A DNA stretch of 62,697 nucleotides, counting the filler, from Dugesia japonica (lineage: Eukaryota), in the NCBI GenBank assembly GCA_001938525.1. It is 5 parts of 5 records of this genome, joined end to end, with 100 filler letters (N's around TTAATTAATTAA, not from the genome) between each part and the next. Parts side by side here need not be neighbours in the genome. Positions count along the whole stretch, not along the records: positions 10,028 to 22,487 come from MQRL01636972.1; 4 more parts are not named here. One strand, given 5' to 3'. The notes under the pieces were generated by a model that saw only the letters and a program-made list of their open reading frames with translations, had not been told where the DNA came from and made no database searches. The position numbers and the translations under genes are program-made. Positions 10,028-16,039 of this stretch are shown piece after piece. Numbering within the stretch: position 1 is the first letter of the stretch; every line of letters starts with the position of its first letter.

Positions 10028-13000
10028 TGAATAAACGTCGAGGCACACTTCCCATTTGGATTCCATGGTGAACTCTACAATTAACAATTGGTGATATGAT
10101 GATTGATCAATTAGGAAATTTACTGCAATGCAACAATATTCAACATTAAAAGAGTATGTTATAATTAAAGTGAGGCAAAGATTTTATTTTATAACAGAAT
10201 AAACATCAAGGAAATATACAATGAGCGGTTGATTATTCTTCATCTAAATCAACTCGATTCGGACACGGGAACATCTCGGCGAAACACTGGAGGTCGGTTT
10301 CGTCAGGATGTTCAATCACCCCATGCGATAGTATATGCATCAATAACTGTCTCCTCCTAGCTTTATGCCTTGCGAATCTGATAACTTTTAATACTTTAAG
10401 AAAGGAGCTGGGCATATCGTTTATCTAATTTAAAATATAAGTTAAATTATTCTGTCTTAATTAAGGCTGCAACTAATTGTACTCCATTACTTCACTCTCT
10501 CTAAGCAGTCTCTCATGTTAATTATTAAATCGTTGAGGCACAAAAATTAATAAATCCTAATTATTATTAACATTCGCAAATCATTAATAAACTATGAATA
10601 AATTATTAATCAATTAATGGTAAGAACTGATAAAATAATATTCCAGCAGGAATACTAATAATAATTACCATAGTATAGATAATAGTGATAATAGCTTATA
10701 TGTTTTCCAAATTAATGTTTTAAAATTCAAATCAACCTCTTTCCATTTCAAAATGAATTAAATTAAATTTAGGAGCAATGTCATTAATTCCTTATTATCC
10801 CAATAGGATATTTTCAGTACATTTGTCTCACTAGAAAGACAAATAGTATAACAATATACTTATTCGATTTAACTGGATCAGGTTGAGAAGGGAAACTGAT
10901 CATAATACCATAAAATAACTAACTTAAACTAATCGAAATAAGTATTCACAGTAGTAAAATTAAGCAAGAGATTTCCGAAAANNNNNNNNNNNNNNNNNNN
11001 NNNNNNNNNNNNNNNNNNNNNNNNNNNNNNNGCAGTTGCTTAATTGGATAAATCTCAGATTTCTTAATTCGGTTATTCTTCAAATTACTATGGTCTTTCG
11101 TATAACGTAGTTGACACTCAGACTCCCTCGCTTATCTGTGTCCAGTAATTGATTGATAAACTGTTGCAAAGCCTAACCGATGAATTCAGTAGATACAATA
11201 ATTACTTGCAATATGTCCAATTAACTATAATAAGAATAATACGAACAATAAATAATAATATTAATAATAGTGATAATATTAATAAAATAATATTAATAGG
11301 ACCCGTATCAAAAATTTCAGCCAAGAATTAAGGGAACTCATTCTCATTAAATACTTAATTTAATATAATTATCCCTCTTTATAATTCGATTTGCCGCAAT
11401 TTTGGGTTGCCCAGCAACGCTAAACAAGTTAATTAGTGATTTCAGACGAGTAGTGGTGTAGATTAAAGGCGGGTAAGGTTGTTGTGACTCAGTAGAAATT
11501 CATATGCGGTTAGACGGTTTTGATTTCGATGATAGGCTACAATTTGAAATAATGCTCATCTTCATAGTTATTATAGAAATATTATTTTATGCTCAATAGA
11601 CGATACACGTATGTTTGTAAATCGCGCTGTATATTAATCTCCCCTGACAACACTTCAAGGTTGTCAGCAACTAAACGCTGAATGTAAAACATGTTGCCTA
11701 TATTAATAATAGTTGTGTTAGCGTGTGTGTTTACTTGCTTACCTNNNNNNNNNNNNNNNNNNNNNNNNNNNNNNNNNNNNNNNNNNNNNNNNNNNNNNNN
11801 NNNNNNNNNNNNNNNNNNNNNNNNNNNNNNNNNNNNNNNNNNNNNNNNNNNNNTATTAATGAAGTTCATTCGGCAACAGACAACATCGCCGTGGTATAAC
11901 CCAAAATCTTTAATTAAACATGAAATTTTCAGTCAGTTATCTTGTGGATCGTGGATTTTATGGGACATTTGTATTGAAAACTATGTAGTGGTAATATTTT
12001 TACGTTCATGAATAAATGATGATAATTTTAATGACTTTTAAATCTCTTTTTTTTTCTAATTACTTTAAATTATAATAACATAGTAGTATCAGTACTATAA
12101 AAGTTGGGGTGAATAAATGATTTATAGAATAATAGAATTGGGAAACTAGATTTAACAACTGATTATCATTATGTTACATTATAGAAATTTGTGTAAAATT
12201 AAATCATCGAAATAAATTATAATAAATAATAATATTAAATTTTTTATAACCAAATTTATTAACATATCTTAACGAAAACTAAAATTTACATCTCACATAG
12301 TTATCATAAGAATAAAATTTTACTTTAATTCGATTTCTTTCGGGAGAGAGTAGCGACTTCTGTGTTTGGTCCTGAAAACTGGAAATTCCGGTGTTTTTGA
12401 GTTTCTTAAAAAATATAAGCTGATTCACAATTCGTTCAACAAAAATTTGAAATTACGCTGCTAGTAAACCTGAGGTAATCGAGGCGCGATAACTACGAAT
12501 TATCTGTTGATTGATAATATTCCCAATTAACGTGGTATTAATACGAGTAAAGTGTGGTTTTGCTAATTTAGTAGAGAATGAAAATTAATGGTTTTTTCCG
12601 TTAAAATTGAAAGTCCTTATATACGATTTTCACAACACCCCGACCCGTTCTTGATTTGCGGGTTATTTTTGGATCCACGTTTTTCTGCTGTTATTGGTTC
12701 TCGTGCCATTTTTCTCTGATTTTATTTGAATTTTGGTGCCATGATTGGCAGCTATTTTTATCAGAACACATGACATTTGTGTCTTTGTTCTATTTTTATT
12801 TTCAGCGTCCTGATTGGCTGGATCTTGAAAACCTTGCAGTACCCTTCTGGAAGGTGATAGGTTTTCCTTCTTCGGAGTTTTAATTGCACCCCGATGTTTC
12901 CTCTTCATTTTTTCTTGTCCGATTTCCTTTCGACTTCTTGAAGCAAAGTTATCCGGTTAAAACCGATTTTTCCATTAATTTTGTTTCTTTTTATTTTAAA

Positions 13001-13237
13001 ATTAATTAATTTCTTTTGTTACTTAATTAATTTCTTTATTACTTTTTCTTTGTTGACCAATGTTAAATTAATAATTTTCTTAATTAATTATGATGATGGC
13101 TGGTTCTGTTATTCCCAATTATTAACTTTCTGCATTTTTTGTTATCTTTTGAAGATATTGTTGTACACCTTTTTCTTAGTTCGTGTTTGACGACCCCGTG
13201 GGTTTGGTTCTCATTATCTGGGTGTTTCACCCCAACA
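10028..13237 (-). mobile_element. TGTTGGGG-family element copy 1 (terminus, promoter, cassettes A and B)
   Basis: 17-mer at 13221-13237, CCAAT boxes, TATATAA at 12617-12623, cassette A at 10233-10415, start of cassette B at 10066. Confidence 0.75.
10233..10415 (-). CDS. Cassette A micro-protein (60 aa, intact): basic helix + HPDExDLxCF motif
   Basis: Acceptor TTAG 9 nt before the ATG and AATAAA after the stop. Ungapped similarity to copies at 17354, 57559 and 56618; the C-terminal motif is shared with 41529. Confidence 0.65.
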   Translation of the reverse strand: MPSSFLKVLKVIRFARHKARRRQLLMHILSHGVIEHPDETDLQCFAEMFPCPNRVDLDEE

Positions 13238-16039
13238 ATATAATAACTCTTTAAAATTAATGTATACAAGTTTTATTTACTGTATAAGCCTAAATAGTGT
13301 ATTTAGTAGTCCCAATAGTACCTCACAAATGAGAAGCTTAAAAGTTTAATCGGCTGATATTGACAGGTACATGATGATGCTTGAGAATCAAATCAGGCAG
13401 CTGGAACAATTTATTGTAGTAATCAAATGCATAATAACCAACTGTTACAGATAAAAATATTATTATAATAATTTATTTCATGCAAGAAATAAATTTTTAA
13501 ATAAAAAATATTTAATATTCTTTTAATAAATCAATTTAACAAAACATAAAATTTCAAAATCAGACGGCTAAAAATATTTAAAAACTCTAAAGCAAGAAAC
13601 TAAAAACGTAATTAAATATGGAGAATAATTAATCAAGGTTAGATTGTTAGAAAACTTCAGAGTAGAAACCATATGGACATTAAAATCATCCAATCACAGA
13701 AAGAGAAAGTCAGAATTGGGGATTAACTAATAAGAAATGGTTTAGGACACACACACACACACAAAGTTGAAAATCACTATTCAGTCAATGTTTAGTTGAG
13801 TAGTTGCAAAGTGATCACCAGAATATAAAACCCAAAAACAATCAATCAACCCTTACAATAGTTTTAGAAAATTTTAACAAGCAACAATTAGATTAGAGAA
13901 ACAAAACATTAACAGAGTAGGTTCCGATTATGACCCTAACTCTAACAATAAGAATTGTAGAAAATTTATTGTTACGGGTAACTGCAGAGGCAGATGTAAT
14001 TACACGTGCGAAAATTAAAATCAACTAAATCGAGTTTTCTAAATATTTTAACATGATAATCGGCTAAAATAAAATGACACCAAAAATATAGCTTTCTCTT
14101 GCGAAATATTGTTAACATAATATTAAAGTTAAATTAAATGAAATCTAATCAAACTGTTTTTTTTTTATGAAACGTTGTTTTAACGATAACTGATATTCAT
14201 TATTTAGTGAGTAAAATTAATGAGGAAATGGTGATCAAGAAGGAGCTGATGAAAAACTAATGAAAATTGTTATTTTGCACAAATTTATTATTTAAATTTT
14301 TAAATCAGAAATGCAATAAGAAATTTTATTTATTCCTTTTTTCTTTTCCTGAATTCAAATTCTGTAAAATTAAAATATACTATATTTATTTTTCAAAATA
14401 TTAATTTTGCATGAATTTTTTTTGTGTTATCAAATTGAGTTGTAAATATTTTTTCTTTTAGGAATTTTAAAAGATTACGTTGCGATAGTTTGTTCTGATA
14501 TTTATATCAAATTAAATTTTAGTTTATTTACTCTTCCTTTTTGACGATTTGATCGTTTCATTGGAAGCTGGTCACTTGTAGATTCTTGGTTGAATTTGTA
14601 TTATAAGAAATTCTAGATTGAATTTCAAACTGTATTGGTTTGTATTTTCATTTTGTTTACTAAAATACGTTTACAATATAATTTCAAATAATTTGCCGTG
14701 GTTGAGCAGTATTCGATGCATACGTACATCTTTTTCTAAAAAATTCAATTCTTGGCGCATAAGTGGCACATACTTGAATCTTCAGTGTTTTTAATTCTGG
14801 TAAGGTTGTATGTTCAGGTACGTTTATTAATACTGTTGGGGTGAAACACCCGATAGTAAGGATAATATCTCCAGGGCCCGAATTGGGGTGCCAAGAAGAA
14901 ATAGGATTTGAAAGATTAATATAACAACCATCAATTTATCAATATTTGACGGATTAATAATCAGAAAAGGGTCCGGGAGAAATCATGGAAGAAGAATATT
15001 ATAATGAGCCATGGGCAAATAATTATAATTAAAGAAATTATAATTTGGTGTTTGAAATCGGAAAATATTAATAAAATATAATGAAAATAATTAATGGAAA
15101 ATCAGAAAGAAAGATAAAATGCAGAAAGAAAACACCTGAGGGATGAATTTAATTCTAATCAATTCCAATAATTAAAGAAAATTATAATTTATCTAGGAAA
15201 ACAAGAAAATTAGCAGTAAAAATAATAATTAATTAACAAGAAAAAATTAATTAATTTACTCCGAAAAAAGAAGTTTAACTAAACGAAAATCAGTTTTTGG
15301 AAGATATCTTCTCTCTGGAAGATCACAAGAGACCCTAGCAAGAAAATCTGAATGGGTCATGTTACGGGGCAGTAGAATGTTCTAACACGAATAATCTACC
15401 AGCATTAGAAGGGTTGGAGAAAAAGTTTTAAAAAATAAGCCCATCAGAGGCCAGAAAAGAAACATGAAATAAAGAAATAAGAATCACAAGGTGCTTCAAA
15501 AAAAAGCACCAATAGTAGATCAAAAATTCTTAGAAAAAAATCAAAAAGTTGGCACCAGCACCAACAGAAATTAAGAAATTTGAAACAAAAATAGACAACC
15601 AATACTAAGAAAGTTGGGTTGTCAGAAAAATCCTATATAAACCCCCCGATTTTTAGATGAATTCACCCTTAAAAATTGGAATTATTTCTAGCTATTACAG
15701 CGTTTAAAAGTTACGAAAAGTTATTCCTAAAAAATTACTACGATTACATCTATTCAATCAAAAACCATTATTTATTTCTTGGAATTAGTAAGGAGAAGCA
15801 ATACCAAACAAATCGATTATCCAATTCCCATTGCAGTTGAATAAAATAAAATATTAAGTGAATGTTAATATTTAAAAATTTAGTTTATGTAATAATCTTT
15901 TATTAAAAATATAAAAAATATGTTATATAAAAATCATTGTGTTACCAGTGTTTATTTATTTTTCAGAAATAAAAGACAATTAAGTTCATTCCATATCACG
16001 TTGCAAATTAGTGATCCCCCGCTTTCTCAAAAAACAGAA

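Follow-up and report, generated by a model that had tools for sequence, protein, structure and literature searches.

Giant retrotransposons with multi-kilobase long terminal repeats (LTRs) have already been described from planarians. Burro exceeds 30 kb in total with an internal region of up to 25 kb, which leaves at least ~2.5 kb for each LTR, and decayed copies of it have been reported in Dugesia japonica (PMC6431247). For the retrotransposon Cer1, the accessible part of PMC10309623 describes a spliced regulator, CERV. Here, we analyzed a stretch of 62,697 nucleotides from the D. japonica assembly GCA_001938525.1 (in the following called the window), which consists of five scaffolds joined by N44-linker-N44, with 27% G+C and 36% A. 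Within it lies a unit of 4.6 kb that resembles a terminal repeat, bears genes and starts with an invariant 17-bp end. We read this 17-mer, with a probability of roughly 0.7, as the integrase attachment end, i.e., the start of the unique 3′ region (U3), of a ~4.6-kb LTR from a giant Gypsy-type group, present in single copies through LTR recombination or assembly collapse. An original prediction, made from the sequence alone, had proposed an integrase attachment site at the 5′ end of very long LTRs; this is largely upheld, but the right end, the 4-bp target-site duplication (TSD) and the protein-coding cassette had escaped it.

Seven exact copies of the 17-mer lie at the predicted positions and strands, 13221(−), 14834(+), 31742(+), 41038(−), 47766(−), 50677(+) and 59461(−), whereas the count expected from 100 dinucleotide shuffles is 0. 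The predicted degenerate copy also exists, with two mismatches, although at 48284–48300(−) rather than 48283. Named c1 to c8 by position, the eight copies are distributed over four of the five scaffolds, as foreseen, with about one terminus per 8 kb, and the described units account for ~27% of the window (17.1 of 62.7 kb), which may be unrepresentative. Their outer flanks (300 bp) are indeed unrelated, with 0 of 28 pairs above a z-score of 2.5, and similarity between copies breaks off at the first T of TGT. Two of these flanks are not neutral DNA: c4 (at 41054) lies antisense within another family member, and c5 (at 47782) within c6 (at 48300). A hairpin GGTG-AAA-CACC, noted earlier within the 17-mer, does fold, but it is no more stable than shuffles in any of the eight copies (z −0.2 to −1.7), and we discarded it as a conserved function. 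A hammerhead ribozyme, tRNA or other known RNA was rejected as well, since the window yielded neither a tRNA nor any Rfam match at the gathering threshold. In prokaryote genomes the 17-mer occurs at 37 loci, none of them similar to the units, and these are therefore chance matches. The 17-mer, its reverse complement and its 14-base prefix were not found in the full-text papers searched (the supplements of PMC11410931 and PMC8532177, where readable, hold no terminal sequence). The 8-mer TGTTGGGG was found three times outside the 17-mers, compared to ~0.3 expected by a rough, by-hand estimate from base composition.

That the motif is an insertion end follows from two copies. The complete unit c2 (Table 1) is bounded by an ATAC duplication. 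Its right end is the only recognizable one in the window; CAACA occurs 14 times over the next 7.6 kb, and just this one is followed by ATAC (chance ~0.05, a rough figure), and it sits exactly where the frame of a decayed Helitron gene resumes. The left flank, 14564–14833(−), presumably continues this frame, judging from Helitron motifs, with two PDB searches negative. A homologue search and four short-fragment PDB searches for the Helitron were likewise negative; a longer query from the right flank matched, one from the left flank did not. The second copy, c5, is inserted 519 bp into c6, and a 158-bp twin of this region beyond a gap (47513–47670), 97.5% identical, has the site empty. Because of the c2 duplication and the empty-site twin of c5, the 17-mer is a true insertion end, placed at the junction, as the original prediction had supposed. 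Insertions occurred mostly into AT-rich sites and twice into relatives. For the other seven copies we found no convincing TSD pair: c1, c3, c5 and c8 are truncated by gaps or scaffold ends, and the three other members of the c2 family end at gaps or scaffold ends before the expected right end.

It is highly improbable, in our view, that the 17-mer is instead an internal site of a larger repeat, be it tRNA-like, transcription-factor binding or resembling a primer-binding site (PBS). By eye, its core resembles the 3′ end of tRNA-Val, and pairing with a host RNA would explain its invariance. However, homology stops at TGT without any related flank pair, duplication and empty site put the 17-mer at the junction, no tRNA or Rfam match appeared in the window, and none of the seven exact copies reads TGG-TGTTTC on the other strand. 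Thus the motif is not part of a larger shared repeat; neither is it a long terminal inverted repeat (TIR) beside a transposase, as the units have no long TIR and no transposase.

Because of its TG...CA ends, short inverted repeat, 4-bp duplication and putative internal RNA polymerase II promoter, c2 has the anatomy of a single LTR. Solo LTRs of Gypsy elements have TG...CA ends with a short inverted repeat and a TSD of 4–6 bp, all of which c2 shows (TSD ATAC), and its start fits the TGTNR given for Gypsy LTRs in the accessible part of PMC2836005. Of the predicted very long LTR, the 4.6-kb unit is confirmed, and so is the terminus; we infer LTR status, attachment function and 5′ (U3) polarity from anatomy and promoter direction. 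The expected ...CA end and TSD were found in one complete copy, as ...CAACA and 4 bp. No long direct repeat occurs in the c2 interior. The 36-N gap, 190 bp before the right end, lies within the unit, and c2 could therefore be a collapsed LTR pair; the length of the repeat unit would then be unchanged.

Promoter-like motifs lie inward of the terminus. Blocks of CCAAT and TATATAA were predicted 610–800 bp from the end; we found them at TATATAA offsets of 615, 801 and 656 in c1, c2 and c8, but only in these three of the eight copies. In c4, TATAAAA lies at offset 944, and the preceding 250 bp are free of CCAAT; of the remaining copies, two are cut short by gaps and two have no promoter block. The three 250-bp stretches before TATA contain eight CCAAT boxes compared to ~0.9 expected, with the same spacing in c1 and c8. 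The AAAAATAGCTGCCAAT reported as common to two copies is real and is shared by those at 13221 and 59461 (positions 12744 and 58939), not by the fifth listed copy, which runs 62 bp before a gap. The A-rich arm described for all copies is found in seven (43–64% A) and is absent from c7 (31% A).

Looking further inward, an all-vs-all comparison of 1,556 six-frame fragments of the window revealed two families of open reading frames (ORFs) that recur across scaffolds. Family 1 was detected at 10236–10424, 17312–17509, 57371–57511 and 41504–41638, family 2 at 17706–18144, 56847–57203 and 41755–41982, and a profile scan of the window yielded no further convincing copies of either. The order is fixed, with an ATT tract followed by family 1 and family 2, 2–3 kb inside the unit and on the strand of the terminus in c1, c2 and c8. 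Pooled over 288 non-independent codon pairs from 10 pairwise comparisons, the proportions of nonsynonymous (pN) and synonymous (pS) differences were 0.34 and 0.81, with identities of 0.56/0.71/0.41 at codon positions 1/2/3. Because pN is below pS and even the non-coding promoter arm is better conserved than third positions, the ORFs must have been under purifying selection while the lineages diverged to saturation. The terminus is unchanged despite this synonymous saturation between copies. Individual copies are partly decayed: in c2, family 1 stops early and the frame of family 2 is broken. The third ORF of c2, 18464–18721, weakly matches 42262–42333 in the fourth family member.

The family-1 profile matched a single protein among 1.84 billion, P0121, which has 60 amino acids and is 47% identical end to end with the c1 ORF. 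Its structural model, in which a long basic helix is joined by a short one with an acidic tail (predicted local distance difference test (pLDDT) 86), is confident but too simple to be assigned; Foldseek against viral and PDB libraries gave no E below 2, and neither Pfam nor PDB sequences matched. For family 2, a word-index homologue search and a search of phages gave no homologue, and the model (pLDDT 46) is unusable. Among 12 proteins compared with PHROGs, one matched weakly, to an unnamed family. From its charge pattern and the CERV precedent, the 60-amino-acid product most plausibly regulates element RNA or transcription.

T-rich tracts ending in AG directly precede family 1 in c1 and c2, and family 2 in all three copies. 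Such acceptor-like AGs before successive ORFs suggest alternative splicing from one promoter. If TATA starts and the AATAAA at 19336 ends the genomic RNA, the repeat region (R) would measure ~3.7 kb and the unique 5′ region (U5) ~0.1 kb; alternatively, the promoter would be an internal one for accessory genes.

Taken as an LTR, the unit would work as follows. An integrase would insert the TG...CA ends at AT-rich targets cut with a stagger of 4 bp, and recombination between LTRs, or short-read collapse of two identical LTRs, would leave single ones. The CCAAT/TATA promoter, 0.6–0.8 kb in, would drive a transcript spliced to the successive acceptors of small accessory ORFs, with a poly(A) signal close to the right end as its probable terminus. 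The basic/acidic two-helix product may then regulate element RNA or transcription in a Rev- or CERV-like manner.

Several observations weigh against an LTR. No paired LTRs are seen in the window, as would be expected for solo or collapsed LTRs on scaffolds of 9–20 kb. A polypurine tract (PPT) precedes none of the eight termini and no PBS follows the one right end, yet PPTs are clear at two other LTR starts in the window, 30378 and 56219; linked gag-pol was not seen in the window either. Just one copy is bounded by a TSD, with its right end beyond the 36-N gap, and PDB searches with its presumed Helitron left flank were negative. The 17-mer of c7 comes without an arm. Alignment of the codon pairs by protein similarity, and their non-independence, favors pN < pS. 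Only two of four family-1 copies, compared to three of three for family 2, have a clear acceptor-like AG, there is no strong splice donor at c2 offsets 800–1200, and an R of ~3.7 kb is unusually long. Thus, of the marks of an LTR element named in the original prediction, paired direct repeats, PBS, PPT and linked gag-pol were not seen for the units in the window. Among ORFs of at least 55 codons (115 in the window, scanned with Pfam), none inside the units encodes an integrase, transposase or reverse transcriptase (RT). Affiliation with the short-LTR Gypsy element at 27.6–30.5 kb or the gag at 55.7 kb was rejected, as both have different LTR starts of their own.

The lack of PPT, PBS, paired repeat and gag-pol at all eight copies would also fit an LTR-less, non-autonomous unit that transposes as DNA with the help of a Gypsy-like integrase or transposase acting in trans, the 17-mer being the recognition site shared by many cargo-carrying families. 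A single trans-acting enzyme would account for invariance across saturated lineages, and TGTNR termini and 4-bp TSDs are known from Ginger1 and Ginger2, AT-rich targets from Ginger2 (PMC2836005, accessible part). In contrast to the TIRs of 40–300 bp and the Gypsy-like transposase described there, the inverted match of our unit covers 5 perfect and ~15 imperfect base pairs, its two ends differ, and no DDE domain was found among its ORFs, although none would be expected in non-autonomous copies either. An LTR fits the distal AATAAA and the U3-like layout of CCAAT and TATA, and we consider such trans-mobilization quite unlikely.

Hardly more probable is an LTR of opposite polarity. The 17-mer would then be the U5 end, its reverse complement ending in ...CCCCAACA beside the PBS, with the cassette antisense to gag-pol; integrase and a U5 hairpin used in priming would keep it invariant. 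The orientation we prefer would instead put a PPT before TGTTGGGG and a PBS after ...TTCACAACA. Within the window, polarity is fixed by the promoter alone, a small stem-loop is present in seven of the eight copies, and antisense accessory ORFs occur in some Gypsy lineages. However, TGG follows none of the eight termini on that strand, the hairpin is no stabler than shuffles, and around the opposite end of c2 we saw no TATA.

Unlikely, but of wider consequence, is that the whole 4.6 kb of the terminal repeat form a spliced cassette of several genes for proteins of no known family, either as an LTR with an R of ~3.7 kb or as an LTR-less unit moved in trans. In the former case every solo LTR would stay a complete expression unit; in the latter, lineages that have reached synonymous saturation would share one invariant 17-bp site. 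Many lineage-specific proteins of the host could then stem from such cassettes.

As predicted, several subfamilies share the one end. The arms of c1, c2 and c8 (13237, 14834 and 59477) align at 61–64% identity over 500–580 bp (z 30–39), and c3 and c4 (31742 and 41054) at 61% over 246 bp (z 4.8). With c6 and c7 (48300 and 50677) no other copy gave a convincing alignment, and c5 is too short. The same end may thus be carried by up to four lineages. No right end was found for c4. The c6 ORF 46542–46925 would belong with the element by its position. Other candidate ends were dismissed. For c1, the right end is not TTCACCCCAAC at 12103, which lacks a TSD and immediately precedes an acceptor-like AG, with family ORFs running on past it; for c7, TGTTGGGG at 54801–54808 was set aside less firmly, having no TSD. 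Nor are c7 and c8 two TIRs of one 8.8-kb element, as their flanks form no direct repeat and the interior of c8 runs colinear with that of c2. A preference for antisense nesting in ATT tracts was also discarded, being seen for c4 only, with generic AT-rich DNA flanking c7 and c8. A variant, TGTTGGGGAACATGG, at 54794–54808(−) adjoins a duplication at 53.0–54.8 kb and is possibly another terminus; no TSD was found there.

Table 1 Coordinates of the units in the window and of features within and next to them.
Feature	Positions	Strand	Remarks
c1	10028–13237	−	17-mer at 13221–13237; runs off scaffold at offset 3210
c1 family-1 ORF	10233–10415	−	intact, 60 amino acids
c1 promoter-like block	12617–12623 (TATATAA)	−	CCAAT at −194/−125/−74
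c2, complete unit	14834–19471	+	4,638 bp including 36-N gap 19247–19282; TGTTG...CAACA
TSD ATAC, left copy	14830–14833	+	4 bp
c2 left terminus	14834–14850	+	invariant 17 bp
c2 promoter-like block	15509–15640	+	CCAAT at −125 and −35; TATATAA at 15634
c2 ATT-rich low-complexity tract	16850–17200	+	similar tracts in c1, c7 and host of c4
c2 family-1 ORF	17354–17509	+	basic helix, then HPDE motif; just behind acceptor-like AG; stops 8 codons before 60-amino-acid form
c2 family-2 ORF	17739–18144	+	behind acceptor-like AG; broken over two frames
Two further c2 sense ORFs	18464–18721, 18879–19247	+	weak coiled-coil-like Pfam matches below cut-off
c2 last of 13 AATAAA	19336–19341	+	~130 bp before right end; candidate poly(A) signal
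c2 right terminus ...GGTGGGTTCACAACA	19455–19471	+	inverted repeat of left end: 5 bp perfect, ~15 bp imperfect
TSD ATAC, right copy	19472–19475	+	4 bp
c2 right flank, decayed Helitron Rep/Hel gene	19472–20500	−	19551–20090 vs Helraiser 7LCC residues 691–806, E 9e-16
c3	31742–32057	+	scaffold end after 316 bp; 61% identity to c4 over 246 bp
c4	39300–41054	−	17-mer at 41038–41054; A-rich arm; own ORFs 39733–39897, 39302–39637; second subfamily with c3
Fourth c1/c2/c8-family member	41055–42338	+	ATT tract, families 1 and 2, start of third ORF; interrupted by c4
Fourth member, family-1 ORF	41504–41638	+	
Fourth member, family-2 ORF	41755–41982	+	
c5	47721–47782	−	62 bp, then gap; inserted in c6 arm
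c6	46542–48300	−	2-mismatch terminus 48284–48300; A-rich arm; 128-codon sense ORF 46542–46925
c7	50677–51900	+	exact 17-mer; lacks A-rich arm and promoter block; offsets 850–1230 hold an ATT tract
c8	56566–59477	−	17-mer at 59461–59477; ends at gap
c8 family-2 ORF	56847–57248	−	
c8 family-1 ORF	57371–57511	−	
c8 135-codon ORF	58067–58471	−	
c8 promoter-like block	58816–58822 (TATATAA)	−	CCAAT at −190/−121/−70

The window also contains other repeats and genes. A decayed short-LTR Gypsy element at 27558–30490(+) has an LTR pair (27562–27655/30378–30484, 77% identity), a PPT before 30378 and an RT (PF00078) at 29227–29553, which a short Gypsy RT remnant at 62291–62436(−) resembles. At 55704–56260(+), a gag zinc-knuckle remnant precedes a PPT and, at 56219, the LTR start TGTCGGGGCG, which resembles the start of the 17-mer. 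Remnants of hAT transposases lie at 560–2040(−), with PF05699 at 560–748, and 30806–31267(−). We take fragments at 32160–32837(+) to be a Pogo-like DDE transposase, and those at 61106–61623(−), 1.6 kb outside c8, to be a Penelope-like RT, both without a Pfam match. An inverted, related pair at 43772–44300(+) and 48389–48860(−) (73% over 120 bp) shares a short ORF motif and forms a repeat family. Near-identical pairs astride 50-N gaps (53030–53896/53947–54781, 36599–37022/38200–38623, 47513–47670/47779–47935 and 40247–40408/40469–40632) are alleles or paralogues that the scaffolder put one behind the other, and suggest a heterozygous genome; two copies may have been joined in c4. A host gene, sorting nexin SNX3/12 with a PX domain and short introns, lies at 21509–22125(+) and marks the host as an animal; the best named identities of its exon are 68%, to cestodes, but when the whole gene was scored against 26 named proteins, flatworms did not stand apart from molluscs or annelids. 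Base composition, intron size and repeat content may point to a planarian. Presumably, 34092–36709(+) encodes an EXD2-like exonuclease and 25001–25243(+) is a myosin-like exon, both without a Pfam match. AT-rich tandem arrays lie in and after the EXD2-like gene (35130–35850 and 36710–37640).

Among known systems, the plant Ogre/Tat elements resemble our unit in their extra ORFs and in LTRs of 1.9–6.5 kb (LTR sizes from PMC6431247). They differ in their plant hosts and in carrying the extra ORFs in the internal region. LTRs of the Tat clade have TGTTGGGG-type starts, and the TSD of Ogre/Tat is 5 bp. HIV nef and MMTV sag lie in U3. Like Cer1 CERV, they are small accessory proteins from spliced RNA, some of them LTR-encoded; in contrast, our products gave no sequence or fold match, and several ORFs lie downstream of the LTR TATA rather than upstream in U3. 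The GLT entries, which are of LTR type, provide a lead only, as does a GLT2 probe row that by eye we assume to encode a coiled-coil-like exon behind an acceptor. GLT2, a planarian Repbase element, is similar in being a planarian transposon with tissue-specific transcripts, according to the accessible part of PMC8532177; the papers found on it give no account of its structure. In the open literature we found no account of genes inside Burro- or GLT-type LTRs; Repbase, subscription papers and bioRxiv supplements lay outside this search and may already hold the element.

Burro and GYPSM1 come closest among known elements: the likeness extends to multi-kilobase LTRs, accessory ORFs, high copy number, an AT-rich host and fragmented assemblies (PMC6431247; PMC11410931, accessible part). 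In contrast, the accessory ORFs and domains of Burro are described for the internal region, and section 7 of PMC6431247 mentions neither spliced LTR ORFs nor terminal sequence or TSD length. The window holds no assembled internal region, and its 115 ORFs encode none of the domains known from Burro (MATH, BIR, BCL2, ankyrin, Env). Compared by description rather than sequence, membership in Burro or a sister family appears possible, at somewhat less than even odds. Solo LTRs are usually seen as leftover promoters; because the repeat described here holds several selected ORFs of no known family, every inserted copy may function as a gene cassette. The invariant 17-mer provides a single probe for mapping subfamilies that cannot be linked by DNA similarity, and a test case for why an integrase end stays fixed while synonymous sites saturate. 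This bears on the giant planarian LTR elements tied to tissue-specific expression and stem-cell survival in the accessible parts of PMC8532177 and PMC13465017.

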